DNA of 64,000 bases from a virus (taxonomy: Duplodnaviria; Heunggongvirae; Uroviricota; Caudoviricetes). The stretch is from IMG/VR virus record IMGVR_UViG_3300021405_000008; one strand, given 5' to 3'. This document shows, in pieces, positions 18,747 through 59,099 of this stretch. Both the position numbers and the translations under genes were made by a program. Numbering within the stretch: position 1 is the stretch's first letter; each line of letters opens with the position of its first letter. The notes under the pieces are model-generated. The model was not told the origin of the DNA and did not search any database. It saw only the letters and a program-made list of their open reading frames with translations.

Positions 18747-19085
18747 ATGTGGGGATGGCCATGGGAGAATGATGTATCAAGTCTCCAGGCACAAATCAAT
18801 GAACTCAACAAGAAAGTGAATGCTATGACTACCGCCCAGAACGATGTTGACAATGCTACCGCTGCTCTCCAGGCAGTTGCTGCAGACCTGACTACGGCCG
18901 CTACCACGATTCAGACGGAGCTGACGGCTGCTGCTGCCGCTGCTGGAGTAACCGTCAATACCTCGGGGCTTGACTCTGCGGTGACAGCTCTCCAGACCGC
19001 GCAGGCGGCGATCGATGCCCTGGAGACTTCGACGACTACCCCGACGACTACCCCGACCACACCGACGCCGACGCCATCTAGCTGA
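18747..19085 (+). CDS. small coiled-coil protein with Pro/Thr-rich tail
   Basis: 112 aa; Ala/Thr-rich helical region then TTTPTTTPTTPTPTP. Confidence 0.4.
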   Translation: MWGWPWENDVSSLQAQINELNKKVNAMTTAQNDVDNATAALQAVAADLTTAATTIQTELTAAAAAAGVTVNTSGLDSAVTALQTAQAAIDALETSTTTPTTTPTTPTPTPSS

Positions 19086-19170: not shown

Positions 19171-19404
19171 GTGATGCTCATCGAGACAAGGAGAATCATG
19201 AAAGATCTTGGTCTGCTGAACTGGTACAAGTCTACATTCTCGGCTCACAACGGTGGCTGCGTCGAGGTCGCGCACTTGCCTAACGGTGGCATGGCAGTCC
19301 GTGACACGAAGGACCGTAGCAAGGCTCCCCATGAATACAATAACGAGGAATGGTCGGCGTTCATCGCTGGCGCCAAGGCCGGAGAATTCGACCCGATCGT
19401 TTAA
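19171..19404 (+). CDS. DUF397 domain protein (BldB-like)
   Basis: 77 aa; WYKSTFSAHNGGCVEVA…VRDTKD…EWSAFIAGAKAGEFD matches DUF397 signature. Confidence 0.75.
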   Translation: MMLIETRRIMKDLGLLNWYKSTFSAHNGGCVEVAHLPNGGMAVRDTKDRSKAPHEYNNEEWSAFIAGAKAGEFDPIV

Positions 19405-19589: not shown

Positions 19590-20375
19590 CTAGCATCCAT
19601 CATAGGGTGCCCAGTTGTCAGCACCACCTGGGCTTGCCATCGCGTTATCGAATACTTGTGTCTGCTCAGCAGGCGTGGCATCACCGAATTCGGCGGCGCT
19701 ACCGCCATACTCTTCCCAGGTCGACTCACTGAACTGGTATAGGCCGTAATGCCCGCTGGAGTTCATGACCTGGCTGTTGCCGCCGGACTCGGCTCGAATC
19801 ACGCAAGACTGGAATGAGCTTGTTACTGCGTACCCCTGCTGGGAAGATTGGGGCGTAGCAGCTGCGGCTACGCTGTGATGTGTGCTCTGTACGGCTGCGT
19901 CTACGGTCACCACTGGTGCCGGAGCGGCCGGAGCAATATCACTTTGTGGCACCGGTGCATACCGGTGCGAAGCAGGGATGAGCAGATTCTGCCCGACTTC
20001 GATGTCATTGGCGTATTCGATGGACTTCTTGTTCGCCCAGTAGATAGCGGGCCAATCAGAAGCGTTGCCGTATTTGTCAATAGCAATGCTAGATAGGGTA
20101 TCACCGGACTCGACGCGGTAGTACTGGTTTGGCATATGAGCCAGGGTCGGGCGCGAGATCTCCTTTGGCGCGGTCGTGCCTCCAATCTTCAGATGATTGA
20201 TTTTCGCGCTCGGGCTCTGAACAGCAGCCGGCACATAGAATGAACTTCCGTTTGTCGCGCTGGCTGGTCCATTGAATGACTGATTCTTCATAGCCCCTGT
20301 TGCGAGGGCTCCGATGACAAGCACTGCTGCCGCCGATGTTGCGACAATGCCTGCTAGGCCACGCAGTCGATGCAT
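19590..20375 (-). CDS. secreted Rpf-like transglycosylase with LysM domain
   Basis: 261 aa; signal peptide; LysM (YRVESGDTLSSIA…); C-terminal CVIRAESGGNSQV…GLYQFSESTW…WAPYDGC Rpf/transglycosylase-like domain. Confidence 0.7.
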   Translation of the reverse strand: MHRLRGLAGIVATSAAAVLVIGALATGAMKNQSFNGPASATNGSSFYVPAAVQSPSAKINHLKIGGTTAPKEISRPTLAHMPNQYYRVESGDTLSSIAIDKYGNASDWPAIYWANKKSIEYANDIEVGQNLLIPASHRYAPVPQSDIAPAAPAPVVTVDAAVQSTHHSVAAAATPQSSQQGYAVTSSFQSCVIRAESGGNSQVMNSSGHYGLYQFSESTWEEYGGSAAEFGDATPAEQTQVFDNAMASPGGADNWAPYDGC

Positions 20376-22395: not shown

Positions 22396-24726
22396 TTAAT
22401 CATCCGGGTCTACTACCCATATCTGTTCGGCTAGAATCGGGGTGCCGAATCCAGCAATACGGTTGCCGGAGCAAACTACCACATCATGGTCGACATTAAT
22501 CGAGTCAACGAACCTGCGAAGTTTCGGAAACACGAATCGGTTAATCCTGATGTATATTTCCTCATCGCTATTATCATAACAGCGGAGCGAGCAGTACTTG
22601 AGAAGGTCGGGCCGATACATACTAGCTAGGATATCCTCCATCTCCTCGCCAGACCTTGACCTCTGGTTCTCAGCCGCATCCTGATAGGCGCGCTCGCGAA
22701 CGATACCGGCGTATACTATGTGCGGCCCTTTCGTGAACTTGTGCTTTTTGCCGCTTCCCCTATCATCATCCATTCTGATCGCGGCTAGCATTGCCCCGTC
22801 GTGTGTTAGGCGCGGTACGCGCGCCTGGCTCTTGATCCAGGAATTGACCCTGCCTAGTCGTCGCTCGGTTAGCTTCAGCTCAAATGGGTCATCTGATGTT
22901 GCAAATGCCTGGATCTTCTCTACTGTCTTCGGGCCAATTCCGTGGATGCGCTCCATATCAGACCAATGTTTGAATGGACCATTGTCCTTCACGTCCTGCT
23001 CGATGTTCACTGAGACGATAGGGCCGATGCCCGGTATCTCGCGCCATCCTGCAATTAGTTCGCCCGTTCCATCGGCCTTGAGCCATGGAGTCCATGATCT
23101 ACGGCTGTACTTAAGTCTTGGCGGGCTGATTCGGATATCGTGTTGCATCGCATCCCGCATTAGGCGGAACCGGGCTTCCTTGTCGTCGGTCTTCGCAAGG
23201 TGCGAGGCATAGAATTCCAGCGGGTGGTGCGCTTTGAGCCACGCGCACCACAGGGCTAGTATTGCATAGCTCACGGAGTGTGCATAGACAAAGGCGTAGG
23301 TTCCGCTGGTGACTAGTCTCTTCCATATTCTGTCTGCTGTCTCTGGGCTAATACCATGGAGCCTCGCGGCCCCCTCCATGAATCGTTCCTTGTTGACGTC
23401 GAATGCCGCTTCACCCATCTTCTTCGAGATGATGCGACGGATCTCGACGGCATGTGTCCAGTCGAAGTCCCCGACATCCCGTACAGTTTGCAGGATCTGC
23501 TCCTGATAGATAATCTGACCCTTGGTGTGCTTTGTGATATTTGTTACTACGTCGTGGTATCGTTCTGGCTTTCGTCGTCCGTGTTTGACGTCAACATATT
23601 CAGCAGTTGTTCCAGAAAAGAGCGGACCTGGGCGCGAGAGCGCGTTGATATCAATGACCTCTCCAAAGTTATCAGGACTGACATCTCTATTGATGAGCCG
23701 GGTTGCTCTTCCCTCATACTGAAAGAGACCAACCACATCTCCCTGCTTGAAGACTGCGAGAGCTGATGGATCATCATCCGGGATGGCATAGAGATCCTCC
23801 AAGGTAAGCCCGATCATCTCAAGGCATTTCGCAATGACGCCCATGGTGCTTAGCCCGAGTAGGTCCATCTTCAGCATGCCGGCCGAGTCGACGTCATACT
23901 TATCGATGCTGAGGATGGAGCGGCCATCGCGGTCGTAGATCGCGCAGATATCGGTAATCGGGGTCGGGGTAACGATCAGACCGGCGGCATGTACGCTCAT
24001 CCCGCGCATGTTGCCTTCGAGACGGACCGCATTCCATAGATCAGGGTAGGTATCGAATACCTCTTTGGCAGCCGGGAAGAGTTCCACGGTGTCCACAAGA
24101 CTCGCGTCAAATCGCGAGTCGCCGCCTGATCGTTCAATAACTAGATTGCTAACTACTTCCTTGGCGTAAGACGGAACATTATAGACACGAGCCACGTCAG
24201 CCAGGCTATTCTTGCCACGATAGCGAACAAAGTTAGCGACAGTTCCCACGCAGTCAGCACCGTAACGCCGAGACATATAGTCACGCACCAAATACCGGTG
24301 CTCGTCTGAAATGTCCAGGTCAATATCCGGCGGGTCAGATCGCGTGACATCAATGAACCTTTCGAACAGTAGATTGGGGTACCGGATCGGATCAACTTCG
24401 GTAATCCTCAGCATCCAGGCCACATTACTCGCGGCTACCGAGCCGCGCCCCGGTCCCATAGGTATGCCATGTGGAGCTTCTGGCCCTCGGTAGTCCTTGG
24501 CCCAGCGTACCATGTCGCTCGTAGCAAGGAAGAAGTCTGCAAAGTCTTTCCCGAGAATTAGGCCAGATTCATACTTTGTTCGCTCACCGTACCAGTTCCT
24601 TTCGGCTACTGGTCGCTTGCCAAGCTGCCGGTAATTCCAGCCGAATCGGAGCCACTGCCAATATAGATCTTCTGATGTCATTTTACGGCCGCCTTGTTCT
24701 TTTTTGTGACCCAGCAAGTTTGGCAC
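22396..24726 (-). CDS. dnaE: DNA polymerase III alpha (DnaE-type) catalytic core, C-terminal fragment of split gene
   Basis: 776 aa; GPGRGSVAASN…, PDIDLDISDEHR palm motifs, fingers/HhH region (GIGPKTVEKI). Confidence 0.85.
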   Translation of the reverse strand: MPNLLGHKKEQGGRKMTSEDLYWQWLRFGWNYRQLGKRPVAERNWYGERTKYESGLILGKDFADFFLATSDMVRWAKDYRGPEAPHGIPMGPGRGSVAASNVAWMLRITEVDPIRYPNLLFERFIDVTRSDPPDIDLDISDEHRYLVRDYMSRRYGADCVGTVANFVRYRGKNSLADVARVYNVPSYAKEVVSNLVIERSGGDSRFDASLVDTVELFPAAKEVFDTYPDLWNAVRLEGNMRGMSVHAAGLIVTPTPITDICAIYDRDGRSILSIDKYDVDSAGMLKMDLLGLSTMGVIAKCLEMIGLTLEDLYAIPDDDPSALAVFKQGDVVGLFQYEGRATRLINRDVSPDNFGEVIDINALSRPGPLFSGTTAEYVDVKHGRRKPERYHDVVTNITKHTKGQIIYQEQILQTVRDVGDFDWTHAVEIRRIISKKMGEAAFDVNKERFMEGAARLHGISPETADRIWKRLVTSGTYAFVYAHSVSYAILALWCAWLKAHHPLEFYASHLAKTDDKEARFRLMRDAMQHDIRISPPRLKYSRRSWTPWLKADGTGELIAGWREIPGIGPIVSVNIEQDVKDNGPFKHWSDMERIHGIGPKTVEKIQAFATSDDPFELKLTERRLGRVNSWIKSQARVPRLTHDGAMLAAIRMDDDRGSGKKHKFTKGPHIVYAGIVRERAYQDAAENQRSRSGEEMEDILASMYRPDLLKYCSLRCYDNSDEEIYIRINRFVFPKLRRFVDSINVDHDVVVCSGNRIAGFGTPILAEQIWVVDPDD

Positions 24727-25410: not shown

Positions 25411-25751
25411 TGATCCTCCGGGATCTTATTGATCCTGTATGAAAGTCTTTGCAGCATAATTCTCTTTGTGGATTCGACATCCTTTGTGAAATGCTGTATC
25501 CCCACGATTCCGGTTATTGCAACATCGGCTAGCTCGTTGAATACATCCTCCATTTCACTGCTGAATCCCTTCCTTGGATTCTGTCCCGTGTAACCCAGGA
25601 ATGCCTCGAATGCTTCTCCTGCTTCCTCCCCTGCCTTTGCTACTCTTGCTAGATCTTGTGCTAGTGGCTGTACCTTGTATTCATTACTGGTGTTATCATC
25701 CAACCAGTCATCAATTCGTTCGATTGCAGAAAGTACGTCATTCATGTCCAT
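25407..25751 (-). CDS. MazG-like nucleotide pyrophosphohydrolase
   Basis: 114 aa; KAGEEAGEAFEAF and NELADVAITGI acidic helix motifs typical of MazG/all-alpha NTP-PPase. Confidence 0.55.
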   Translation of the reverse strand: MDMNDVLSAIERIDDWLDDNTSNEYKVQPLAQDLARVAKAGEEAGEAFEAFLGYTGQNPRKGFSSEMEDVFNELADVAITGIVGIQHFTKDVESTKRIMLQRLSYRINKIPEDQ

Positions 25752-26734
25752 GGCTGCATATCCCTTTCCGTTGCATTGTAGCGGAGACGTTCCGCTTTAG
25801 GCAAAGTCACGTTACATAGGCTGCCAACGTAGGCGCTTGCCTCGATCGCGGCCCACGCGGAGTCCCGCGATATCCCGGTGCGCTTCAGGCGATTAGCTAG
25901 TGCCTTATCTGATGATGGCAGCGTCAGCGGCACCTTGTAGTTCCATTCGCGCATGGCGTCGTCCACGCTAGCCTTACCGCGACCTACGGCATGTAGTACG
26001 GCTTGCATTTCCGCATCGGCCATCTCAGGGTAATGCACATCATGCGTAACTACTAGTGGTACATCAAATTCTCTGCTCAGCCGTTCATATGCCTTGTTCA
26101 TGGCGCAGCTACGTGGTAGTTCATAGAATGGCTGGATCTCTAGGAAGTACCTGTCTCCGAAGAGTGCTCTGAAGTTTTCAATGACTACTCCTGCTGTACC
26201 ATAGTCTGGCCTATCGATGTGCTCTGGAGTTCCCTTACCTCCAAGCAGTGCACAGGCAAGTAGACTCCCGCTGCATCCCGAAAGAACAATGATTCCTTCG
26301 GAGTTATCCGCAAGGTTGTCACCAGAGACCGTTGGATGGTAATGGTGATCGAGGTAGGACTGGGTGACGATTCTGTTGAGGCTTCGGTATCCAGCGGCAT
26401 TTTCGGCGAGGATTGTGAGGTGGTGCTTGTATTGTCCTCTCGCTGGCCGAAGGATCGTATTCCCCTGTTCATTCAGGATGAACCGTGCCTCGTCATTTTC
26501 TTCAAGAACAGATCCACAGTATGCCTCCATACCGAAGATGGGCTTTATGCCCGCTTTGATGGCTGCTTTCTCGAACTGGAAGTGAGAGCTAACATTCCCG
26601 TGCTCGGTCGCAGCTACCGCCGAGTATCCCAGCTCCACTGCACGCTGTACGTGGGAGGCTGGACTCCCATATCCATCCATAAATGAGAATGTAGTGTGAT
26701 GGTGTAGGTTAACGAAATTTACCGGCGTTTTCAT
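25742..26734 (-). CDS. dnaE: DNA polymerase III alpha PHP (N-terminal) domain, N-terminal fragment of split dnaE
   Basis: 330 aa; FVNLHHHTTFSFMDG…ATEHGNV…GMEAY classic PHP motifs; ends before palm domain. Confidence 0.85.
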   Translation of the reverse strand: MKTPVNFVNLHHHTTFSFMDGYGSPASHVQRAVELGYSAVAATEHGNVSSHFQFEKAAIKAGIKPIFGMEAYCGSVLEENDEARFILNEQGNTILRPARGQYKHHLTILAENAAGYRSLNRIVTQSYLDHHYHPTVSGDNLADNSEGIIVLSGCSGSLLACALLGGKGTPEHIDRPDYGTAGVVIENFRALFGDRYFLEIQPFYELPRSCAMNKAYERLSREFDVPLVVTHDVHYPEMADAEMQAVLHAVGRGKASVDDAMREWNYKVPLTLPSSDKALANRLKRTGISRDSAWAAIEASAYVGSLCNVTLPKAERLRYNATERDMQPWT

Positions 26735-29951: not shown

Positions 29952-30198
29952 CTACCGACGGATCTGCTGGGTTGAATGACAAATCTACTGCCAATTCCCC
30001 GGTGTCCTCATCTCCGACTACTGCATCATCTGGTACATTATTCTGGCTAGCCCAATCCCTCAGATATCCCCAGGTGATCTGACTCATTGTCTGACTTACC
30101 TCTCCGAATGATTCTGACATTATCTCTTCTAGCGCTATGTCGCTCAGTTCAAATCCCGTGTCTGTCTGGCTTACATCCTCCTCGCCCCAGCTTGGCAT
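29905..30198 (-). CDS. small acidic protein
   Basis: 97 aa, Asp/Glu-rich. Confidence 0.35.
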   Translation of the reverse strand: MPSWGEEDVSQTDTGFELSDIALEEIMSESFGEVSQTMSQITWGYLRDWASQNNVPDDAVVGDEDTGELAVDLSFNPADPSVDEPATLSIQFDDVNE

Positions 30199-31394
30199 TA
30201 CTCACCCTTTACATTAATAATCTGGTGCAGGGTGTGCTCTATCTTGACTAGGTCTGCCGCATCTCGCATGACGACATCGACATCCTTGTAGGCGGCGGGG
30301 ATTTCATCGATGAACTTGTCTGAGTGCCTCCACTCGATACCCTGCATTGCCTCTTCTAGGTCCGCGAAGCTGAATGCACGCTCTGCTGCCTTCCGCCCAT
30401 ACTGACGGCCTGCGCCGTGCGGTGATGAGTTCAGGGATAGCGTGTTGCCGAGTCCCGAGACAACGTAGGATGCCGTCCCCATGGATCCAGGGATAAGCCC
30501 CATACGGCCCTCACTGGCGTCGATCGCGCCCTTCCGCGAAAGCCATACATGTCCCTCTATATCTGCCGATGGCCTGAAGCGCCGCAGTAGATCTTCGGTC
30601 ATCGGCTCGGTGTAATTGTGATGGCACTGGATGCGCTCAGATACGTACCAGTCGTCTATCTCCTGAGTTATGCACCCAAGGACACGGTCCATCATCTCTT
30701 CGCGGTTCATACGCGCGAACTCCTGCGCCCAAAAGAGGCAGCGCAGGTAGTCCCTGAACTCTGGCGTGCCTTCGACAAGATATGCGAGGTCGGAATCAGG
30801 TAGCGTCACCCAATTGTACTTGCAGTATGCTTGGGCAATTGCGATGGACTTCATTGCTAGCTTATTGCCGACGCCTCGGCTGCCGCTGTGCAGGAATGCC
30901 CATACCCGGTCTTCCTCATCTACTGAGACTTCGATGAAGTGGTTGCCCGAGCCGAGCGATCCAAGCTGCATATCCCAGTCGGCTATCTGAGTGGCGTCCT
31001 CGGCCCCATCCATCTTTGCCAGGATATTGACCCGGTGTTCGGTCCTCCGGTCCCATAGTTTCTGATTGTACTTACCTACTGACAGCGGTATGGCTCGCTC
31101 GATCCGCTCCCGGATTCGCCGCCTGAGATCAGGGTCTTCTAGCTGTTCCGCGTATAGGCTTGTGCGGTGCGCGATCATGCCGCAGCCGATATCGACTCCC
31201 ACAGCTGCCGGCATAATTGCGCCAATTGTCGGGATGACTGATCCCACCGTCGCGCCTTTGCCCCAGTGAGCATCAGGCATAATTGCAACATGCGGAAAGA
31301 TGAATGGCATAGAGGCAGTATTAAGCGCCTGCTGCTTCGCGCCATCTTCGAGGATTGATGCCCAGCTGAACAAGCGATTGTCTATCTTCTCCAT
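30198..31394 (-). CDS. rtcB: RtcB-family RNA ligase
   Basis: 398 aa; MPDAHWGKGATVGSV, GVDIGCGM, GSGNHFIE, HNY, SPHGAGR motifs. Confidence 0.85.
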   Translation of the reverse strand: MEKIDNRLFSWASILEDGAKQQALNTASMPFIFPHVAIMPDAHWGKGATVGSVIPTIGAIMPAAVGVDIGCGMIAHRTSLYAEQLEDPDLRRRIRERIERAIPLSVGKYNQKLWDRRTEHRVNILAKMDGAEDATQIADWDMQLGSLGSGNHFIEVSVDEEDRVWAFLHSGSRGVGNKLAMKSIAIAQAYCKYNWVTLPDSDLAYLVEGTPEFRDYLRCLFWAQEFARMNREEMMDRVLGCITQEIDDWYVSERIQCHHNYTEPMTEDLLRRFRPSADIEGHVWLSRKGAIDASEGRMGLIPGSMGTASYVVSGLGNTLSLNSSPHGAGRQYGRKAAERAFSFADLEEAMQGIEWRHSDKFIDEIPAAYKDVDVVMRDAADLVKIEHTLHQIINVKGE

Positions 31395-31477: not shown

Positions 31478-32521
31478 CTACTTGGCGGGGGTTGTGTTGA
31501 GTGCGAGTCCGCTCGTTGAACCAGGGAAGCAGCTAAACCCAGCCGGAAGGTTGTTCTCGCTCTTGACGTCCGTAAGGCACTGTGCGATGAGCTGGGCCAC
31601 AGTCGGGTCACCTAGCTTAGCGAATGCCTGCGAGTTCTCCTGGTTGACTAGGACGTTGGTCTTAGCGATGACGAGATTGGCAGCAGCTTGCTGGATTGCC
31701 TGTAGCTGCGCTTCCACTGGTGCCGGATATTGCATGTTCGGGAACAAGACGCTGATCACGTCGATCCGATTGCCGATGTCATGCTGCATCTGCGCAAGGA
31801 TCTGTGAACTGAACCCGGTGAACTGGCTCTGGGCTCCGGCCGTCGTGTTTACGGTCGTGGTATCGGTAATAGGCGAGTAGTCACCCACCACGTTATTCAC
31901 GACCTGCTCCAGTTCCCGGATGACGACCGCATTCGTGATGGTTGACATCAGGCTACCCTGATTAGCGTAGTCTTCGAACAGTCCACCAGCGGCAGCAGGG
32001 AGGATCTTCCACTGAATGGTAACCTTGGCGCAGGCCTGGAAGTTTCCGCCGATTCGTACTGGCAGGGAGCCATCGCAGGATTCAGTACCATTCTGCATCA
32101 CGCCGTCGGTACCACCCGGTTCGAAGGTCGTGGTCTGAACAGTTTCGTCTTCGTCCACGACGCCGAGCCATGGTTGCCATGTCCAGTGTGTTCCCGGACT
32201 CAGTGTACTACCTGACACGGAATTGAATGCGATCGGGATTCCCACAGTCTTCGGCGGCACGCTCTTGATTCCGCCGACCGCGTAGAAGGCGATGCCAAGC
32301 ACGACGCATATAGCTCCAGCACCATACCTAGCTCCACGAGACCAGATCGAGTCTGAACGTGGGGATAGATCCGGACCCAGAGCACCCCAGGCGATAAATA
32401 CGATCGCAATGACCCAGAAGATGATTGCGATCACGAATAGGAAACTACTCACCCTTCCGTCGTTCCAGGCTGTCAAGCTCATCATCGGTAGTAGCCTGGT
32501 TGATCCTATCGATGAGGGCAT
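31478..32521 (-). CDS. membrane protein, SPFH/band-7-like (tentative)
   Basis: 347 aa; N-terminal TM helix, Gln/Ala-rich coiled C-terminal region. Confidence 0.4.
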   Translation of the reverse strand: MPSSIGSTRLLPMMSLTAWNDGRVSSFLFVIAIIFWVIAIVFIAWGALGPDLSPRSDSIWSRGARYGAGAICVVLGIAFYAVGGIKSVPPKTVGIPIAFNSVSGSTLSPGTHWTWQPWLGVVDEDETVQTTTFEPGGTDGVMQNGTESCDGSLPVRIGGNFQACAKVTIQWKILPAAAGGLFEDYANQGSLMSTITNAVVIRELEQVVNNVVGDYSPITDTTTVNTTAGAQSQFTGFSSQILAQMQHDIGNRIDVISVLFPNMQYPAPVEAQLQAIQQAAANLVIAKTNVLVNQENSQAFAKLGDPTVAQLIAQCLTDVKSENNLPAGFSCFPGSTSGLALNTTPAK

Positions 32522-32739: not shown

Positions 32740-33747
32740 CTAGCGAATCCCGAGGCACCTGTAATTGGCAAGATGGTATAGGTACTCGTGTTCCTCGTGC
32801 GTGTCTGTATCTCCGCAGTACCTTACCGGGAGCTTTAGATGCTCGGCCATTGCGGGCGAGAGTCGAGCTGCACCCTCACGAAGTGGTTCGAGTGGGTCGA
32901 TGTCAACCCACGTCGTGGGGTTATCTCCATTTGCAGTGTGGACGTCTACCCGGCTGCGGATGGCGCAGAATCGATCGGACTCCGCGTGGAACCCGCACCT
33001 GCCAGTTTGATAGCAGATTGGCTTGAATAGCTTGATGATCTCGCGCTGCTGCCAGCGCTCATGCACCGGTCCATAGTCGAGGATGGCACGGATCATTTCA
33101 TACCAGACTTGCTTCCATTCCCACTGAGCCTGAGAGCAGAGTCGCTTGCCAGCTAGCGGGATGAGATTGCGCAGGTTTGTCTTGTAATGCATGCGAGTGG
33201 TGATATTGTGTGGCAGACGACCCCTGGCATCCTCAGCCGGGATACCGCCGCCAATCAGACCATTGTAGACGCTTGCGTCATATTCATTGGCCTGATCCCA
33301 CAGGACACGCATCGGGTGATCATCGTCGAGACCCGCGATGCTCGGCGGGTATGCCACCTCAAGCTCGGCATTTTCCTTCACTGCGAAGCGCTGTGATTCC
33401 TGCACAAATACAGCTGTCCTCTGTCGTACAGCCTGGTGAGTGAAGGCCCTTGTGACACCCTCGAAGAAGAAGTGCAAATCGATGAATTCAAGACCCGATT
33501 GCAGCTCTGTCCTGGTCATTTCCTCTAGCCAGTGCATGGCTAGCGGCTTATTGATATCCATCGGGTCAGTTACCATGTGACCGATGTACAGTTCGCACGC
33601 AGCCGCCATCGTCCGGAGCGGCTGATGAGTCATTGAGACGAGGGTTACTCTTGGCTCCACCTGCTGTCCTGCATCAGCCATTGCATTGTGGGCTGATTCG
33701 TACATTGCTACGTCGGACCACTTCTGGACGCTATTACCGGGAGCCAT
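32740..33747 (-). CDS. thyX: flavin-dependent thymidylate synthase ThyX
   Basis: 335 aa; RQRTAVFVQESQRF (RHR-x7-S / ESQR ThyX signature) and downstream Arg-rich motif. Confidence 0.75.
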   Translation of the reverse strand: MAPGNSVQKWSDVAMYESAHNAMADAGQQVEPRVTLVSMTHQPLRTMAAACELYIGHMVTDPMDINKPLAMHWLEEMTRTELQSGLEFIDLHFFFEGVTRAFTHQAVRQRTAVFVQESQRFAVKENAELEVAYPPSIAGLDDDHPMRVLWDQANEYDASVYNGLIGGGIPAEDARGRLPHNITTRMHYKTNLRNLIPLAGKRLCSQAQWEWKQVWYEMIRAILDYGPVHERWQQREIIKLFKPICYQTGRCGFHAESDRFCAIRSRVDVHTANGDNPTTWVDIDPLEPLREGAARLSPAMAEHLKLPVRYCGDTDTHEEHEYLYHLANYRCLGIR

Positions 33748-35652: not shown

Positions 35653-36483
35653 TTAGCCCTGCGAGCCGGGGACTACTGCGATTGCCATGTCCTCAGAGAT
35701 CTCGGCCCCATTCTTGACTCCCTGGAAGTAGTACGAATGGATCCACGGGTGATCCTTGGCCAGATCCTGGAACTGGTTGTATGCGTCCTTCCCGGGGTCG
35801 TTACCATCCTCGTCGGGACCTTCCCCGAGGATGCCCACGGCCCAGGCCTCAATCCACTGCCCATGGTCACCATAACCGGCGGTCGGTCCTTCGCCCAGCT
35901 TGGCTTGCGACAGATAGCGCCGGACTTTGGCGATGTCATTCAGGATGCCGTCGCTCCAGAATACACGACCGCGGAATGGCCGGTCAGAGAACTTGCGATC
36001 CCCGAACTCGTCCATGAAGTGCTCGTCGCCAGCCTCGATGGCAGACATAGCTTCGGTACCGCCAGCCACGGGCTTCCCGCCCTGGAATAGCTGCGGGTAC
36101 AGTGACATGAAGTATGCGATACGTTCATCGGCATTGCTTGGGTTCATGTCGATGATGAGTTCGCCCTCCTCATCCCGCTTGTCGGACAGAGGAACGTACT
36201 GGTTGTTGAACGGGTAAGTAGCGACACCGCCACCCTCCGACTCCTTGCCCTTCTGGCTGTCGAGGATGGCGAACGGCTCCAGGAATCCCTTGATGGCTCC
36301 GGCTGTGATCGTGAATGTGCACAGTTCCGGGTTCTTCAGCCACGCCCAGCCAGTAGAGGCGGAAATGTCCCAGTACTGCTCGGGCTCCATCTCCTGACCG
36401 GCCTTGAACAGAGAAACGATGTCCTCCTCGCGCTTTGTGCGATCCTTGCCACCGGTGGTAAGTTCGGTGCGGTCGATCTTCAC
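35653..36483 (-). CDS. hypothetical protein
   Basis: 276 aa ORF, acidic. Confidence 0.4.
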   Translation of the reverse strand: MKIDRTELTTGGKDRTKREEDIVSLFKAGQEMEPEQYWDISASTGWAWLKNPELCTFTITAGAIKGFLEPFAILDSQKGKESEGGGVATYPFNNQYVPLSDKRDEEGELIIDMNPSNADERIAYFMSLYPQLFQGGKPVAGGTEAMSAIEAGDEHFMDEFGDRKFSDRPFRGRVFWSDGILNDIAKVRRYLSQAKLGEGPTAGYGDHGQWIEAWAVGILGEGPDEDGNDPGKDAYNQFQDLAKDHPWIHSYYFQGVKNGAEISEDMAIAVVPGSQG

Positions 36484-36639
36484 AGCGTTGCCTTCCGGTT
36501 GTTGTTCTTCTCCTGGTTGTTCGGCCCTGCCCGGTAGAATATCACAGGACGCAATGCCCGCTGGCTACCGAGCAGGGCCTTTATCCCGCCCGCAGAGAGG
36601 GCCGTGAGCGCTGGTCAACCACACCCGCGAGCGGGACGT

Positions 36640-36900
36640 TCATTCGGCTACGGTATGTAGCTTTGGCTTCTCAGAGAGGGCTATTAGACGCCCATCATCA
36701 TCCAGGTCGAATTCGCCATTCTTACATCCGCCGACGAATGCGTCCCATTCACCCTCGGTGAAGGTTAGCATGCCACCGTCCGGATCATTGCTATTCCGGA
36801 CTTGTGCTCCGCCATCGGGCAAGGCCTTGACTTCGACACAGCTGCCACTGAAGTTGCTAAGCGAGCTTTTCAGCCACTTCCCGTTCATACCATATACCAC
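36640..36900 (-). CDS. DUF397 domain protein (BldB-like), second copy
   Basis: 86 aa; WLKSSLSNFSGSCVEVKAL…VRNSNDPDG…EWDAFVGGCKNGEFD. Confidence 0.7.
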   Translation of the reverse strand: MVYGMNGKWLKSSLSNFSGSCVEVKALPDGGAQVRNSNDPDGGMLTFTEGEWDAFVGGCKNGEFDLDDDGRLIALSEKPKLHTVAE

Positions 36901-37003
36901 CAGTGTGACTGTGATGGCACTAGGTTAAGTGGTGCCACTTGCTCGTTCGCATAGCTACAGCCCGGGTTAGGCCCTGCGCCTACGGCCACGCTACGCTTGC
37001 GCA

Positions 37004-37159
37004 TTACAGCCTGCCCTGTGGTTCGAGCGGGTTGATCAGCTCATAGAAGTTGGTCGGCCGGATGTTCCATCCCTGCCGCTTTGAATTCCAGTACGGGTCA
37101 CCAGGGCCACTCTGCCCGTTAGCTCCACTCCCGCTATCACTGGTTCCCCTGCTGTTCAT
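37004..37159 (-). CDS. small protein, tandem paralog 3 of 3 (51 aa)
   Basis: MNSRGTSDSGSGANGQSGPGDPYWNSKRQGWNIRPTNFYELINPLEPQGRL; start overlaps previous stop (TAATG). Confidence 0.5.
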   Translation of the reverse strand: MNSRGTSDSGSGANGQSGPGDPYWNSKRQGWNIRPTNFYELINPLEPQGRL

Positions 37160-37311
37160 TACAGCCTACCCTGAGGGGTGAGCGGGTTGATGAGTTCATA
37201 GAAGTTGTATGGGCGGATATTCCAGCCCTGGCGCCAAGAGCTGTAGTATGGATCGCCAGGGCCGCTCTGCCCGTTTGCGCCGTTGCCGTTGCCTAGACTT
37301 TTGTTGCCCAT
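37159..37311 (-). CDS. small protein, tandem paralog 2 of 3 (50 aa)
   Basis: MGNKSLGNGNGANGQSGPGDPYYSSWRQGWNIRPYNFYELINPLTPQGRL. Confidence 0.5.
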   Translation of the reverse strand: MGNKSLGNGNGANGQSGPGDPYYSSWRQGWNIRPYNFYELINPLTPQGRL

Positions 37312-37460
37312 CAGATCCTTCCCTGGGGTGCGAGCGGGTTAATGAGCTCATAGAAGTTGTACGGTCGGATATCCCAGCCCTGATGCCGCATGCTCCAGTA
37401 CGGGTCACCAGGGCCCTGAGAGTTCGATGCGCCATTACCGTTGGCGAAGCTTCGGTTCAT
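37311..37460 (-). CDS. small protein, tandem paralog 1 of 3 (49 aa)
   Basis: MNRSFANGNGASNSQGPGDPYWSMRHQGWDIRPYNFYELINPLAPQGRI; not in ORF track because under 60 aa. Confidence 0.5.
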   Translation of the reverse strand: MNRSFANGNGASNSQGPGDPYWSMRHQGWDIRPYNFYELINPLAPQGRI

Positions 37461-37578
37461 TTCTTCTCCTTGGAATATTTGTGTCTGCCGCGAGTGAGGT
37501 GACAGAGTTGATCAGTCTCCTATCCCATTCCTCCGCAGACCCTGCCGCCCCCACTCGGTGGGAGACAGACGACATTGT

Positions 37579-38454
37579 CTAGAAGGGTGGTTCCTCGTCG
37601 CTACCCTGCGAGGTTGCCCGGCGGGGTCGCTTACCCGCTACCTTACCGGTTCGCGCGGCGCTACGGGCCGGAACGGGACGGCCGGAACGAGCGGCGGCGG
37701 TAGCGGTGCCCGGCTTAGCGGCGCGGCGCTTAGCGGGCCTTTCCGGGGCTGCCTCTTCTTCCTGGTCTTCATCCTCCTCGGGCTCGTCCTCATCCTCGTC
37801 CTCTACTGGCTCCGGTGCGGCCCTTCGCTTTGCAGCACCAGCCTTCGAAGTAGCGGCAGATTTCGCAGCGGGAGCGCGCACTCGCCTGGTAGGAGGGGGC
37901 TGCTCCTCTTCCTCATCGTCCTCATCATCCTCGTAGTCATCATCCTCCTCATCTTCATCTTCATAGGGTAGGTACTTGACCACGTTGACGCGCATTTCTC
38001 CGCCATTGTCGCGTTTGTTAGTGGTGATGATACGAACATCAGCGGACTCTTCGCCTGGGACCCACTTCCCTATCTTCTCGATTGGGGCACCGAGGTTAGG
38101 GTCATCCTCATCGCCGACGACGAACATCTTTTTCTTGACATCGTTCAGCGTCAAGCCGAATGCCTGGAGGAACGGGTACCATCGCCACTTACTCTTGGCG
38201 TTGAATGTGATGTTGTCCCAGACGCCCATCGTCTTGTACTTGCCGGCGTACTCGTCCGCTTCCCAGACAACCTTCATCATCCGGTCGTCACTCGCGGTGA
38301 ACGTCCACCATGCCTTCTTGATCCGCCCAGTAAGCAGCGTGTTGTTCGGGGGCATTGGTCCGGTATAAGGCTGGAACTGACTGTCCTCGTCATATTCTGC
38401 ATTTTCGAGTTCGTCGACATCGAACTCGTCATCATCCATGCGTAGCCTGGGCAT
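37579..38454 (-). CDS. protein with folded core plus poly-Asp/Glu blocks and Lys/Arg/Ala-rich tail
   Basis: 291 aa; EDEDEEDDDYEDDEDDEEEE and EDEDEDEPEEDEDQEEE blocks flanked by AAKSAATSKAGAAKRRA / AKRRAAKPGTATAAARSGRP. Confidence 0.5.
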   Translation of the reverse strand: MPRLRMDDDEFDVDELENAEYDEDSQFQPYTGPMPPNNTLLTGRIKKAWWTFTASDDRMMKVVWEADEYAGKYKTMGVWDNITFNAKSKWRWYPFLQAFGLTLNDVKKKMFVVGDEDDPNLGAPIEKIGKWVPGEESADVRIITTNKRDNGGEMRVNVVKYLPYEDEDEEDDDYEDDEDDEEEEQPPPTRRVRAPAAKSAATSKAGAAKRRAAPEPVEDEDEDEPEEDEDQEEEAAPERPAKRRAAKPGTATAAARSGRPVPARSAARTGKVAGKRPRRATSQGSDEEPPF

Positions 38455-45695: not shown

Positions 45696-46727
45696 CTAGC
45701 TCCAGCAGTGCACGTAGTCGATGACCATCTTGGCTGATGGGAGCAGAGACGGGTTCGGGTTAACGCTGTTCGTACCGGTGCCGTTGGTCGCGATGTTGAG
45801 CAGACAGTACGAGCCACCGTTGTTGTCGAACGGCCACGGCGTAAGATTGGACGGCGTGGCGGATGCATACAGGGTATTGTCAATGAACAGTTGTACCGAA
45901 CCCTTTGCCCAGTCCAGGCGATAGGTATGGAACCCGCCGTCCATCTGGTTACTAGCGCGGCCACCCTGGCTAGCGGTAGCGATGCCGTTCCAGATTGTGC
46001 CCTCGGTGAAACCGGTACCGTAGTTCTCCATGACGTCGATCTCGCCGCAGCCCGGCCAGGAGCCTTCACCGAGCAGCCAGAACGCAGGCCAGCATCCCGG
46101 CACATTCGGTACCGCAATGGATGCCTCCCAGTGTCCGAACTGCTGGTGGAAGTTGCTCTTAATCCTCGCGCTGTTGAACCCGCCGCCGTCGGCCGGGGTG
46201 ACAGCAATAACGAGGTGCCCGTTGCCGTCGAGATAAGAGTTGGCAGTTGACTTGACGTAGTTCTCGGTCTCATTGTTTCCGCCGATAGAGGCCCCAGAAC
46301 CGACATCCCAAAGCCAGTTGGTCGCGCTGGGCAGTGTGCCCGCAGGGCCGTTGAACTCATCGGCAAAGGTGTACGTCGGAGGAGGTGTAACCACCACGGG
46401 CGGCGGGGTAGTCGCCGGGGGCTGGTGTGCGAAAGCTGGCTGCCCCCAACTACAAACCGGGGCCGTAGTTGCCGTGTGCTCGCCTACTGCGTTTCGAGTC
46501 CTCATTGATATCTCCGCATCTGATCCGGCCACTATTAGACCGGCAGCCGATATGCCGATTGTTGCCAGGAACCTCCTGCGGTCCCTGATTCTTACCTGCT
46601 GCGCCTCAGAAACTTCGGCCGAGGTAGGCCCCCGATCGCTGAACAGAATGCGATCGCGGTATTTATGTAGAGGAAGATGTATGCGCCATTTATTACGTCG
46701 TGGGCTGTCAATTGGATTCACCTCCAT
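45696..46727 (-). CDS. secreted glycoside hydrolase family 16 (beta-glucanase/laminarinase-like) with Tat signal
   Basis: 343 aa; DRRRFLATIGISAAGLIVAGS twin-arginine signal; GH16 catalytic GEIDVMENYG. Confidence 0.75.
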   Translation of the reverse strand: MEVNPIDSPRRNKWRIHLPLHKYRDRILFSDRGPTSAEVSEAQQVRIRDRRRFLATIGISAAGLIVAGSDAEISMRTRNAVGEHTATTAPVCSWGQPAFAHQPPATTPPPVVVTPPPTYTFADEFNGPAGTLPSATNWLWDVGSGASIGGNNETENYVKSTANSYLDGNGHLVIAVTPADGGGFNSARIKSNFHQQFGHWEASIAVPNVPGCWPAFWLLGEGSWPGCGEIDVMENYGTGFTEGTIWNGIATASQGGRASNQMDGGFHTYRLDWAKGSVQLFIDNTLYASATPSNLTPWPFDNNGGSYCLLNIATNGTGTNSVNPNPSLLPSAKMVIDYVHCWS

Positions 46728-47812
46728 GCCCAGGACTGTGACAACAAGTAGCCATTAATGGCAGACTTGAAGTCGGACAGTGTATCGAGTGCGTGAATTT
46801 CATAGCGGAACCGCTCGTTGCGAATGCCATTCCGCGTCGGGTCTTGGACGAATGCCGCGTGGAACGTGGTGGCGGCGTAGGAAACTAGCCATCCGCTTGG
46901 CCCGTCGTAACTCTCGTATGCTGTGCAGGTCTTCGGACAGGTATAGCCCAGGTCGGAGTATGGCACGACCCAGGCATCCCCGTTGAAACGACTGCCCAGC
47001 TCCGAGGTCAGCTCGGCAATGCCATCTGACATCTCCGACTTGACCCGGATAGTGTATGCTGCGTCGCTCTCGCCAGGTAGCTTACAGGCATTGAAGGCGA
47101 AGCAGTTCTTGTCATAGTCTTGCTGGTAATGCCCGTCCTGCCCAGCCTCGATACTAAACGAGTAGACGCTTGGACTTAGGGCCTTGAGCTGTGGCCATGT
47201 CAGATCCCATCCAATGTCGCCCTTTGGGCACTCCGGCTGGACATTTACCCCGCTGATCTTTGGGCCGCATTTGCCATTCGCGCCATCCGCGAACCCGGTC
47301 ACGAGGAATGCGACGGCTGTGAAACGGTAGTGGTAGAGGATCGGCTGTGCTCCCTCTAGGAAGTCACCGATGCCATTGTCTACCGTGATGAAGAATGGCT
47401 TCGTGGGTAGCTTGTACTGCTTGTTTGCTAGCCAAGCGAGGTACTGACTCATTGTCACTGTGTGGTAGCCCTGATCGTACATCCAGGCCATCTCGGCCGT
47501 GAACTGGGATGTACTCACGCTCTCATAGTCATGTGATTGGCAGATCGGAGCAGATGCCGCACAGTCATTATCCATCTCGTGATATACTAGGACCGGGACC
47601 TGCGATGCGGTGGCTACCGGAACCTTATGGCCGGCTACCTGCTTGACGCTCGCCAGGGTTGATGCCGGGGCGGTTGCCGATGATGATTCTGTATTGCTAG
47701 ATCCATACGTGAGCACCACGGTGTGTATCACCAGCATAGAGCCAGCGATTATGACTACTAGAATGGTGGAGAAGATGCCTATCATCATGTAACGGCGGCG
47801 ACGGAAGCTCAT
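46718..47812 (-). CDS. membrane-anchored polysaccharide deacetylase (CE4/NodB-like)
   Basis: Start at MSFRRRRYMM (ATGA coupling to upstream stop); TM; PVLVYHEM…FITVDNG NodB-homology-like motifs. Confidence 0.6.
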   Translation of the reverse strand: MSFRRRRYMMIGIFSTILVVIIAGSMLVIHTVVLTYGSSNTESSSATAPASTLASVKQVAGHKVPVATASQVPVLVYHEMDNDCAASAPICQSHDYESVSTSQFTAEMAWMYDQGYHTVTMSQYLAWLANKQYKLPTKPFFITVDNGIGDFLEGAQPILYHYRFTAVAFLVTGFADGANGKCGPKISGVNVQPECPKGDIGWDLTWPQLKALSPSVYSFSIEAGQDGHYQQDYDKNCFAFNACKLPGESDAAYTIRVKSEMSDGIAELTSELGSRFNGDAWVVPYSDLGYTCPKTCTAYESYDGPSGWLVSYAATTFHAAFVQDPTRNGIRNERFRYEIHALDTLSDFKSAINGYLLSQSWAWR

Positions 47813-49050
47813 GAGTCGATACCCACCTTCATCGCTTCGGCCTGCATGCCCTCGGCTTTGTACTGCGGGGCCCATAGATCGCCCATAGATGCACTTAGCA
47901 CCTTGTACCAGCTCACTACGCCCCAGGCGATAGCAATCAGGTTATAGATGATCATGTGCACGAGGAGGACCGCTAGCAGGGTATCTTTCCAGTCGCGCGC
48001 CCAGTCGTGTCCTCGGATGCGTCGGACATGGATGAATTCCACTAGCATGAGGAATCCCGTCAGTAGCTGCCACTTCCAGTTGAAGCGCCCGGGGTCGACG
48101 ATTGCCTCGGTACCGTTCAGGGCAGTCCATATCATCCAGAAGCTGATGTTCATGAACAGGAATCCGCGCTGTAGCCACTCGCGGTAGTTCAGGCGATTGC
48201 ACCCGAATCGAAGCAAGTCACCGCATGTGCCGGCTTCCCACTTGATACGCTGATACCAGAGTGACTTCCATGTCTTCATGCTACCGGTGTAGCAGAAGAC
48301 CGTTTCCGACATCCAGCATTTCCAGCCCTTCTGCCGGAGTCGGTATGTGAGGTGGTAGTCCTCGACTACGCTTTCGTAAGTCCAGGGGCCTTCCTGGTTC
48401 GGACGGGCGGCCACTGCTTGTAGAGCGATATTCCGGAACGCGCATCCAGTACCAGATATCACCCGGCACCAGCCACGGCTTAGGGTCTGTGTTGCGCTCT
48501 TTGCGAACTCGTACCTTTGCAGCCTAGGCAGGTAGCCCTTGCCCGTCATGATTGGCTGACTCGATGACCCTCCAAGTTGGGGATCATTAGCGAACTCCGC
48601 TTCCCAGTCGGCTACCGCGTGCGGAGGCATCGTAGTATCACCATCAGCGCAGATGATGATGTCGGCGGTCTGGCAGTACTTGTTCCATGCCATGTTTAGT
48701 GCGCCGGACTTGCGGTGGGTGTTGCCTTCCGTTTCGATCACCCGGACACCGTACAGATTGGCGATTACTACAGTCCAGTCCGTAGAGTTATCCGAGATAA
48801 CGATAATGTCATCCAGTCTTCTAGTCTGATCTAGAAGAGACTGAATTGTATTGCCGATGTCCTCTTGCTCATTGTGGGCCGGGATGAGAGCTACAATCCT
48901 CGGCGATAGCTTGTGTGGCACGGTATTTGCCAGCATAGATTCTAGATCGCTGCGGGTGGTAATGTCGCAGGCTGAAACTGCTCTGGCTGGATTGGCATGG
49001 TTGGTAGTCCTTGCCCTCATCCAGGAAAACTCATCGTTGCTTGGAGTCAC
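47809..49050 (-). CDS. processive family-2 glycosyltransferase (PgaC/NodC/cellulose-synthase-like)
   Basis: 413 aa; IPAHNEQEDI, ICADGDT (D,D,D), QRIKW (Q-x-x-R-W) motifs; multiple C-terminal TM helices. Confidence 0.75.
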   Translation of the reverse strand: MTPSNDEFSWMRARTTNHANPARAVSACDITTRSDLESMLANTVPHKLSPRIVALIPAHNEQEDIGNTIQSLLDQTRRLDDIIVISDNSTDWTVVIANLYGVRVIETEGNTHRKSGALNMAWNKYCQTADIIICADGDTTMPPHAVADWEAEFANDPQLGGSSSQPIMTGKGYLPRLQRYEFAKSATQTLSRGWCRVISGTGCAFRNIALQAVAARPNQEGPWTYESVVEDYHLTYRLRQKGWKCWMSETVFCYTGSMKTWKSLWYQRIKWEAGTCGDLLRFGCNRLNYREWLQRGFLFMNISFWMIWTALNGTEAIVDPGRFNWKWQLLTGFLMLVEFIHVRRIRGHDWARDWKDTLLAVLLVHMIIYNLIAIAWGVVSWYKVLSASMGDLWAPQYKAEGMQAEAMKVGIDS

Positions 49051-49762: not shown

Positions 49763-49789
49763 CTAGGCAACCGGCTTGGCCGACGCCTT
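49742..49789. repeat. perfect 24-bp tandem duplication differing at one base (Lys AAG vs stop TAG on - strand)
   Basis: ggcaaccggcttggccgacgcct(a/t) x2. Confidence 0.8.
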
Positions 49790-50296
49790 GGCGGCGGGCT
49801 TGGCCTTAGGCGCAGCAGCCTTGGCGGCCTTGGCCGCCGCAGCCTCGGCCTGACGCTCGGACCGGCGCTCCTTGTTGAAGGCCGATCGCTGGAACTCCAT
49901 GCGGGCAGTACCAGCGATGGCGACTAGGCGAACCGGGTCATCCGCGCCAACCTCAGCGATGGAAGTACCAGTGGGCTCGAAGATGGCGAAGTCCATCCAT
50001 GCAGCAAAGTCCTGCATGACGGGTGTGATGGGCTTGGATGCGTACGGGGTGTAGTCGGGGGTGTCGTCGTCTTCGTCATCCTCGTCGTCGTCATCCTCCT
50101 CTTCATCCTCGTCCTCATCCTCCTCCTCTTCATCCTCCTCTTCATCGTCCAGCTCGTCGTCCTCGTCTTCCAGTTCCTCGTCGTCTTCGTCTTCCAGTTC
50201 CTCGTCCTCCAGCTCCAGGTCGTCGTCGACCTCTTCTGGTTCCTCGACTGGCGCAGACTTGGCTTTGGACTTGGACGTGGCAGTGCGGGTGGCCAT
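49763..50296 (-). CDS. highly acidic protein (about 60-residue poly-Asp/Glu block) with Lys/Ala-rich C-terminus; alternative start 50686
   Basis: ATG 50296 preceded by GAAGGAGAAGG RBS; EEPEEVDDDLELEDEELEDEDDEELEDEDDELDDEEEDEEEEDEDEDEEEDDDDEDDEDDD; ends AKPVAKASAKPVA at TAG. Confidence 0.5.
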   Translation of the reverse strand: MATRTATSKSKAKSAPVEEPEEVDDDLELEDEELEDEDDEELEDEDDELDDEEEDEEEEDEDEDEEEDDDDEDDEDDDTPDYTPYASKPITPVMQDFAAWMDFAIFEPTGTSIAEVGADDPVRLVAIAGTARMEFQRSAFNKERRSERQAEAAAAKAAKAAAPKAKPAAKASAKPVA

Positions 50297-50666
50297 AACC
50301 TTCTCCTTCAGGGGTCTTACATTTTTGAGACGTAGTGGAGCGATAGGCTTATCGTACCGTACCGCCGGACGCGCCGCTACCGGAACGGGGCGATGAGGTC
50401 GATTACTTTCGGTATTTCCGGGGCCATGCTCAAGGATTATCGACGCGAGTGACCCCTCTTCAATGAGGAATCGGGCGGGCTCTCGGCTTCTGACATGGAC
50501 CGCAAAATACCCCTGACTAGACGACCTGGCCGATATCCCATAGTTCCAGGCGGATCGCACAAGCATCCCCGCAGCATCAGGTGTCTCTTCATATTTCTCC
50601 TTGATGTACTGCTCTGCGGATCGGCCGGTCATGGGCCTGGTGAGCGCCCCATATATCTTCCAGCCA

Positions 50667-50891
50667 TTAATCCTCGTCAGTGACATCTGCCTCGGACACC
50701 TCCTGGAACACCCTGGACTCTGTGTGGATGATATTAATGTTTCGGTCCTCTGCCCCGATAGCTATCTCTGCTGACAACTCGGCCGCACTCGTGGCATGAA
50801 TAATCTTGCCCCACGATATGGCATCGAGTGGCTTGTTCATTGGGCGGATCACTCGGTATATGACCGACCGCTCGATGATTACTTCGCTCAT
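50667..50891 (-). CDS. hypothetical protein
   Basis: 74 aa ORF. Confidence 0.3.
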   Translation of the reverse strand: MSEVIIERSVIYRVIRPMNKPLDAISWGKIIHATSAAELSAEIAIGAEDRNINIIHTESRVFQEVSEADVTDED

Positions 50892-58797: not shown

Positions 58798-59099
58798 GCC
58801 TTCCTAATTGCACTCGGGTGAATTTCTGGATCGGGTTCCCCGGTGAACAACCACTCTGTTGTCTCGCCGGACAGCTGAACATTCTCGCCAGTCACGCTCC
58901 GAGTTTCATGGTTGCCCGAGTTTTCCGATTCCATTTTTCTCCATTTTGAAATTCTAGCGGGAGGCAGTTTTGAACTATATCCGACTAACCCTATCGGGAA
59001 TAACGGATACATAATGCCTCCGCTTATGAATGTAACCCAGCATATTAGCGCTACCCCTGTGGCCAGAAGTATCGTGAGTGTTACCAATCTAATGTTCAT
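58773..59099 (-). CDS. small membrane protein
   Basis: 108 aa; N-terminal TM helices. Confidence 0.35.
   Translation of the reverse strand: MNIRLVTLTILLATGVALICWVTFISGGIMYPLFPIGLVGYSSKLPPARISKWRKMESENSGNHETRSVTGENVQLSGETTEWLFTGEPDPEIHPSAIRKAWDRLWRR

Follow-up and report, generated by a model that had tools for sequence, protein, structure and literature searches.

DUF397/BldB proteins are abundant in Streptomyces and their phages. Tandem arrays of paralogous small accessory or anti-defence genes are known from viruses as gene 'accordions', and multi-copy precursor loci are known for RiPPs, e.g. the prochlorosin or cyanobactin-type arrays. The AimP peptide of the arbitrium system is also phage-encoded; it carries an N-terminal signal peptide and has an AimR-type TPR receptor encoded next to it. 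BldB-family proteins do not bind DNA and act by hetero-oligomerisation and via WhiJ partners (PMC10294661), and within XRE-DUF397 modules the part of the toxin has been proposed for DUF397 (PMC7159879). Among the established motifs of translational coupling are spacings of -1 (TGATG/TAATG) and -4 (NTGA), and gene pairs coupled by stop and start often encode subunits of a complex (PMC12548453). Our search of the literature on phage DUF397 or small-peptide arrays returned only such background, on BldB/WhiJ, XRE-DUF397 modules and translational coupling. Saccharomonospora phage PIS 136 is the only GenBank phage with a similar DUF397, and there a 282-aa HTH_31/XRE gene overlaps the DUF397 gene by 4 nt (PIS_120/PIS_119).

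The locus described here lies in a window of 64,000 nucleotides (the whole stretch of DNA analysed), which belongs to a large uncultivated soil actinophage of about 107 kb. Its DnaE-like polymerase shares 46 % identity with the one encoded by Mycobacterium cluster D phages, and an SNF2 helicase and ParB are also encoded. The small-ORF cassette is flanked by genes for a PD-(D/E)XK nuclease, AAA_24, an SSB-like protein, ThyX, RtcB and an Rv2179c-like exonuclease, and its position is in the replication and nucleotide-metabolism module. In the direction of transcription, the features of the cassette and its surroundings are:

37579-38454, minus strand: SSB-like protein of 291 aa just upstream of the cassette, with a long acidic/basic low-complexity tail ending DEEPPF
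37461..37578, minus strand: leader, 118 nt intergenic between the SSB-like gene and P1
37311..37460, minus strand: P1, 49-aa micro-protein MNRSFANGNGASNSQGPGDPYWSMRHQGWDIRPYNFYELINPLAPQGRI, present in the protein collection as a called gene
37159..37311, minus strand: P2, 50-aa paralog identical to P0001, start overlapping the P1 stop (TGATG)
37004..37159, minus strand: P3, 51-aa paralog with the N-module SRGTSDSGSG, start overlapping the P2 stop (TAATG)
36885..37004, minus strand: Q, fourth chained ORF of 39 aa MRKRSVAVGAGPNPGCSYANEQVAPLNLVPSQSHWWYMV, start overlapping the P3 stop (TAATG) and stop overlapping the DUF397 ATG (ATGA)
36640..36888, minus strand: DUF397 (BldB-like), 82 aa, PF04149 with E=9e-19 over residues 8-60, phrog_10815, last cistron
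36523..36637, minus strand: two strong hairpins directly after the DUF397 stop, long and GC-rich, without a U-tract
32740-33747, minus strand: ThyX (Pfam match precomputed for the L001 contig), in a row with RtcB and Band_7
31478-32521, minus strand: Band_7 protein (Pfam match precomputed for L001), in the same row
30198-31394, minus strand: RtcB RNA ligase (Pfam match precomputed for L001), downstream of the cassette
25742-26734, minus strand: PHP-domain protein, 330 aa, a gene separate from the DnaE-like gene and about 1 kb apart from it
22396-24726, minus strand: DnaE-like polymerase, 776 aa

The SSB-like protein had a weak match to an SSB family of PHROGs (E=5e-4) and no OB-fold match in Pfam; its DEEPPF end resembles the tip in which actinobacterial SSB proteins end at the C-terminus. 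Immediately downstream of the cassette, the 276-aa gene is an orphan with no family in Pfam or PHROGs, and its AF2 model (pLDDT 42) was unusable.

The sequence-only reading had described three minus-strand ORFs of 49, 50 and 51 aa between 37460 and 37004, and our ORF listing reproduced exactly these ORFs and the translations quoted for them. The overlaps of each stop with the next ATG were likewise found, as TGATG between P1 and P2 and TAATG between P2 and P3. Tandem Repeats Finder recovered the DNA repeat that had been seen by eye (period 155, 2.7 copies, 74 % matches, score 409) as the sole long-period tandem repeat within the 64-kb window, and the supposed conserved C-terminal half was borne out by an average identity of 80 % over the C-terminal 34 residues of P1-P3. 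Across the array, the 107-kb ENA contig k141_5014170 (L001) and a Logan contig from SRR7093795 (L002) are 99.995-100 % identical to the window; as these assemblies are independent, the array is no assembly artefact. It had also been stated that the array is directly upstream of a DUF397 gene. The gene is there, as the Pfam match shows, and it is downstream, but the two are not adjacent, as the 39-aa ORF Q lies in between. The stop of Q overlaps the DUF397 ATG (36888), and the unit therefore consists of five cistrons, P1-P2-P3-Q-DUF397.

As read from the translations, each P or Q peptide is built of two modules: at the N-terminus a short one rich in Gly, Ser and Asn, and at the C-terminus an aromatic core. 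The P-type core is GPGDPYW..QGW[DN]IRP.NFYELINPL.PQGR, and the Q core differs from it (GPNPG[CY] ... HWW); the two cores had no detectable relation to each other or to a WhiJ-like protein. Q was not called by gene callers, and two homologous ORFs are found at the equivalent place in the contig of a variant phage (L004); its frame is the only one open in all three Q copies. Neither the rest of the window nor the other loci that were fetched contained a further copy of P or Q.

Along the chain the junctions are TGATG, TAATG, TAATG and ATGA, with spacings of -1 or -4. The only stand-alone Shine-Dalgarno (SD) site of the cassette is AAGGAG at 37471-37466, 5 nt before the P1 ATG (pairing -8.5 kcal/mol). 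SD pairing at every start was -7 to -10 kcal/mol compared to a background of -4.8 ± 2.8 kcal/mol, and ahead of every internal start an SD-like site lies in the last codons of the preceding ORF, for example GGAAGG in the QGR codons of P1 before P2 and GGTGGT within the HWW codons of Q ahead of the DUF397 start. The Arg codon of the C-terminal QGR is AGG in every P ORF, giving GGNAGG just upstream of the next ATG, and 10 of the 11 remaining Arg codons of the P ORFs are CGN. It may be the embedded SD, rather than the peptide, that some of the conservation at the C-terminus serves. With their -1 or -4 spacing and an embedded SD-like site, the junctions look typical of termination-reinitiation, and translational coupling is predicted for them. 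A polyprotein made by frameshifting was considered and rejected, there being no slippery site at the junctions. In the 118-nt leader no significant RNA structure was found (z=-0.8), and a promoter scan found no sigma-70-like promoter on its strand. At the other end, the region 36480-36650 with the hairpins had an MFE of -73.2 kcal/mol (z=-2.5, 1 of 200 shuffles equally stable). The hairpins were not flagged by a simple scan for U-tract terminators; they are a probable transcript end (terminator) or processing site closing the cassette.

The cassette resembles the XRE(WhiJ-like)-DUF397 pairs of actinobacteria and their phages, of which PIS 136 shows the canonical form, in that the small DUF397 gene is the downstream cistron, with an ATG overlapping the upstream stop by 4 nt, and the comparison is also based on the DUF397 family working through protein-protein interaction (PMC10294661). 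The upstream partner is different: in the pairs it is an XRE regulator of about 280 aa, whereas the cassette has four peptides of 39-51 aa without HTH. There was no HTH partner for this DUF397 among the upstream P/Q ORFs, the P profile matched a WhiJ-like protein with a probability of only 1 % in hhalign, and phmmer with PIS_120 found no WhiJ-like gene in the window. Despite the similar gene order and coupling, the cassette is thus not a member of the XRE-DUF397 pairs, as the defining HTH partner is missing. We classified the locus as a phage micro-protein array, or as a DUF397 module with a replaced partner. Compared to arbitrium AimP, the P peptides are similarly phage-encoded, about 40-50 aa long and conserved at a C-terminal ..GR[IL] end; unlike AimP they have a hydrophilic, Gly/Asn/Ser-rich N-terminus with no signal peptide, the host clade is a different one, and no TPR or AimR-type receptor gene was found within 10 kb of the cassette. 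A small ORF is coupled to DUF397 also on L007, a 50-kb temperate actinophage-like contig (10836-11173, plus strand), where the stop of a 40-aa Gly/Asn/Ser-rich ORF, MFGSYNGGNSMSNGNSFAEARETVVTEPPLLFPDPWRRLP, overlaps the start of a 72-aa DUF397 gene; this ORF has no detectable homology to P or Q.

Codon-level comparison showed all four small ORFs (P1, P2, P3 and Q) to be genuine protein-coding genes under purifying selection. The Nei-Gojobori dN/dS of whole paralogs was 0.21 for P1 and P2, 0.28 for P1 and P3 and 0.07 for the third pair, with pS values of 0.57-0.73, i.e. near saturation. Over the gap-free core of 34 codons the values were 0.14, 0.24 and 0.10, with p = 8e-4, 1e-2 and 2e-4, respectively, for the excess of synonymous change. 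The paralogs differ mostly at third codon positions (e.g. 3/5/16), and conservation is highest in the annotated frame (80 % compared to 53-68 %), which is also the sole frame that is open throughout the P and Q copies. Between P2 and its ortholog in the variant phage, P0003, there are four synonymous and no non-synonymous changes. The decapeptide SRGTSDSGSG of P3 recurs on the second Q-type peptide of the variant (Q2v) with 9 of its 10 codons changed, all synonymously, and the 'low-complexity' N-terminal half is thus a selected module itself.

A search of 5.8 billion proteins returned only the window's own peptides and two others, P0002 and P0003, which originate from a 1068-bp JGI contig and the 579-bp ENA contig L004. 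The gene order of the variant phage is two P genes, two Q-type genes and DUF397, with TGATG or ATGA at all junctions, and in L004 the Q2v stop overlaps the DUF397 start as ATGA. Both Q-type genes of the variant were uncalled. Checking the copy number in related phages, as had been suggested, thus revealed a difference between close variants, 2P+2Q compared to 3P+1Q in the window, with four small ORFs chained to DUF397 in both. P0002 is a chimera in which the N-terminal part of P1 is joined to a P3-like core, and Q2v combines the P3 decapeptide with the other core. At the sequence level these combinations show that cores and N-modules have recombined, among the copies as well as among phage variants. 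The idea of small, multiplied and diverging peptides evolving by duplication was supported by the conservation of the ORFs and the selection on them, and could be extended by copy-number change and module shuffling. It was further observed that the three Q-type ORFs all encode GPNPG by the same CCTAACCCGGG, with CCCGGG inside it, despite diverged flanks (window 36955-36969, minus strand; L004 315-329 and 430-444); the invariant codons may reflect an extra constraint at the DNA level or a recombination hotspot.

More distant members were found in high-GC contigs. An exhaustive HMMER search of 1.84 billion representatives returned P0002 and P0010 (45 aa, E=6e-4), together with P0007-P0009, three spurious repeat proteins that were rejected as family members, and a follow-up profile search returned P0011 (40 aa). 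P0010 and P0011 are from forest and farmland soil contigs of about 70 % GC (L005 and L006) and have in common with P the invariant core QGW[DN]IRP and a Y.[IFL]Y[DE][FL] segment. Downstream of each lies another small ORF, linked to it through a GTGA overlap (MRGNSIGNS... and MRGNSYANGQS...). The condition that had been named as refuting the coding reading, conservation of the DNA repeat alone, thus did not hold: the ORFs are conserved in the variant phage and in these distant relatives, and they are under purifying selection. The L005 pair is chained to an 86-aa TM/Zn-ribbon (CxxC) protein and not to DUF397; homologs of the 86-aa protein occur in temperate actinophage-like contigs. On two other contigs, L011 and L014, a gene for a basic protein of about 57 aa abuts the 86-aa gene with no peptides between, and the high-GC pair sits between these two genes (compared loci L005 127-652, plus strand; L011 9820-10261; L014 128-680). 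Given this empty junction, the pair behaves like an inserted, mobile mini-cassette. On L006 (208-404, plus strand), about 130 nt upstream of the P0011 gene, there is a sub-threshold tRNA-like element (Rfam tRNA 24 bits, YrlA-like 25 bits), which ARAGORN did not call.

Other collections gave no relatives. P1-P3, Q, P0010 and the L005 partner had no match at E≤1 in Pfam and NCBIfam, nor did the peptides in PHROGs and PADLOC, and the proposed search against precursor and phage-protein families (Pfam, NCBIfam and PHROGs) thus returned nothing. Only chance matches resulted from a PDB sequence search (E=0.55) and from tblastn against GenBank phages (queries P2 and P0010) and plasmids (query P0010), and megablast of the locus against GenBank phages gave no match. 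Scans of IMG/VR for the peptides, including the degenerate QGW[DN]IRP pattern, found none that was real; the 14 matches to the pattern were rejected, as all were chance once translated. Scans of GTDB genomes found nothing. The single match of the JGI metagenome scan, L003, was rejected, as its YRQGWNIRP occurs by chance in an unrelated protein, which is 155 aa or longer. The P/Q peptide family is previously undescribed, and judging from the collections searched it is extremely rare, with a narrow and patchy distribution.

As the best explanation we tentatively propose, at rather low confidence, that the P/Q peptides are trans-acting, disordered binding micro-proteins made together with DUF397, by which the phage modulates the DUF397/BldB-WhiJ network for host takeover. 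Ribosomes would load at the single strong SD before P1 and be relayed down the chain, and such a relay would make the peptides and DUF397 together in graded amounts. On their own the peptides would be disordered; as small binding proteins they would act in trans, with a partner contacted by the N-module and another contact made by the core. For P2, AF2 gave a low-confidence model (pLDDT 54) that is essentially disordered apart from one short helix over FYELI, which is compatible with peptides that need a partner to fold. Among candidate partner systems, the DUF397/BldB-WhiJ protein-interaction network of the actinobacterial host would be the most likely, with the peptide chain occupying the coupled upstream slot normally held by an XRE/WhiJ protein. 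The phage could in this way modulate its own DUF397 or host regulators of the BldB/WhiJ type, a form of host takeover, and specificities would have diversified by duplication and module swapping. By analogy, the unrelated 40-aa ORF of L007, also coupled to DUF397 by stop and start, lends this some support. The linkage of the peptides to DUF397 represents essentially one independent lineage, that of the window phage and its close variant. It also counts against this explanation that the second DUF397 gene of the window is not preceded by such peptides. The L005 relatives, coupled to a different gene in an insertion-like manner when compared to L011 and L014, indicate that the peptides may work independently of DUF397. 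A more far-reaching version, which we consider unlikely, is that P/Q form a new class of modular, disordered, bivalent adaptors, with N-module and core binding different partners, that replace the WhiJ/XRE partner of a BldB-like DUF397 and rewire the host's BldB-WhiJ developmental switch, e.g. by blocking sporulation, their specificities being generated by module shuffling in the chained array.

The main rival is nearly as likely as a partnership with DUF397. It is possible that the P/Q peptides are free-standing, mobile micro-proteins directed at the host or its defences, with a host target unrelated to DUF397, amplified and shuffled in an arms race, and that the linkage to DUF397 is incidental. 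An anti-defence or host-takeover role for the peptides is plausible, and the very narrow, patchy distribution is in line with such effectors, as are the coupled pairs of L005 and L006, which stand as insertions ahead of another gene and have no counterpart at the corresponding junction of L011 and L014, and the copy number and module combinations that vary between close variants. With gene accordions the array shares its tandem duplication, the recombination among its copies and a copy number that differs from one close variant to the other. It differs from these in that its core is under purifying selection and no known anti-defence family was matched, and the same points weigh against effectors of this kind: PADLOC and PHROGs were without a match, and selection is overall purifying, not diversifying. 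A further point against this rival is that in the two phage variants alike the number of small ORFs chained to DUF397 is exactly four.

Below these two readings the likelihood falls progressively. An improbable one is that the small ORFs act in cis as an upstream-ORF relay which feeds attenuated ribosomes to a potentially toxic DUF397, the peptides being by-products. Such a relay would account for the unbroken chain of -1 and -4 overlaps, the single stand-alone SD before P1 and the SD-like sequences fixed in the last codons of each ORF, including AGG in all P copies, and it would agree with the toxin role proposed for DUF397 in XRE-DUF397 modules (PMC7159879). It would have no need for three paralogs or conserved N-modules, however; moreover, conservation of the amino acid sequence extends far from the junctions, with synonymous sites saturated, and the QGW[DN]IRP core survives in the 70 %-GC relatives with a different downstream gene. 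An array of RiPP precursors, with maturation left to host enzymes or to a phage enzyme that escaped recognition, is more doubtful still, although it had been suggested from the outset. As in multi-copy RiPP loci, several paralogous ORFs of about 50 aa follow one another, and in each a conserved half is joined to a variable one; the Trp/Tyr/Pro-rich conserved segments are also reminiscent of multi-precursor loci, and the adjacent 276-aa protein is without a recognisable family. Pfam assignments, which covered every called gene in the 10 kb to either side plus 20 large ORFs from the rest of the window, included no radical-SAM, YcaO, lanthipeptide, lasso, P450, ATP-grasp or peptidase gene. The suggestion was thus not upheld: there is no maturation enzyme among the scanned genes, no Pfam or NCBIfam precursor model matched, the setting is that of replication genes, and the array is chained to a regulator-type gene. 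A conserved leader with a hypervariable core is lacking, and the hydrophilic N-terminus has no visible export signal. Lasso-peptide logic (ring-forming Gly...Asp, Thr at -2) was rejected on inspection, there being no Thr at -2, too short a leader and no cyclase. We regard as close to negligible that the array is a non-coding DNA or RNA repeat of 150 bp (iterons, an origin or a structured RNA) that is open in one frame by chance. The position inside the replication module next to the SSB-like gene and the detection by Tandem Repeats Finder at the DNA level would be in keeping with it, but the substitution pattern effectively refutes it, with changes clustered at third positions, other frames less conserved and containing stops, and dN/dS values well below 1. 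Rfam matched no RNA family over the cassette region, and conservation at the protein level persists across very different GC contents.

Micro-proteins of less than 60 aa are routinely missed by gene callers, and at this locus one of the four small ORFs in the window and two more in the variant contig were missed. It is an unusually clean case in which comparative sequence analysis alone establishes micro-ORFs as real, selected genes, and it shows micro-protein evolution by the swapping of two short modules. Should the peptides partner with DUF397, they would provide a small and experimentally tractable handle on the role of DUF397/BldB and on the ways in which development of multicellular actinobacteria is manipulated by phages. 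Otherwise they are simply a new, very rare family of orphan phage micro-proteins.

The window has a second DUF397 gene, which is solo, with no P- or Q-type ORFs upstream of it. It stands at the end of a plus-strand block, with the following neighbours:

17765-18712, plus-strand block: Rv2525c-like glycoside hydrolase, before the second DUF397 gene
18747-19085, plus-strand block: 112-aa Ala/Thr-rich ORF, before the second DUF397 gene
about 19198-19404, plus strand: second DUF397 gene
19590-20375, minus strand: Rpf-type transglycosylase/LysM gene, facing the second DUF397 gene

Short-period acidic repeats (periods of 9-45 nt) were observed at 50064-50228 (minus strand) inside a 307-aa ORF (49763-50686). 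Also on the minus strand, the window encodes a GH16 glycoside hydrolase (45696-46727), a family-2 glycosyltransferase (47809-49050) and a polysaccharide-biosynthesis/NAD-epimerase protein (59096-60463), and the presence of these three predicted enzymes suggests phage-encoded glycan modification.
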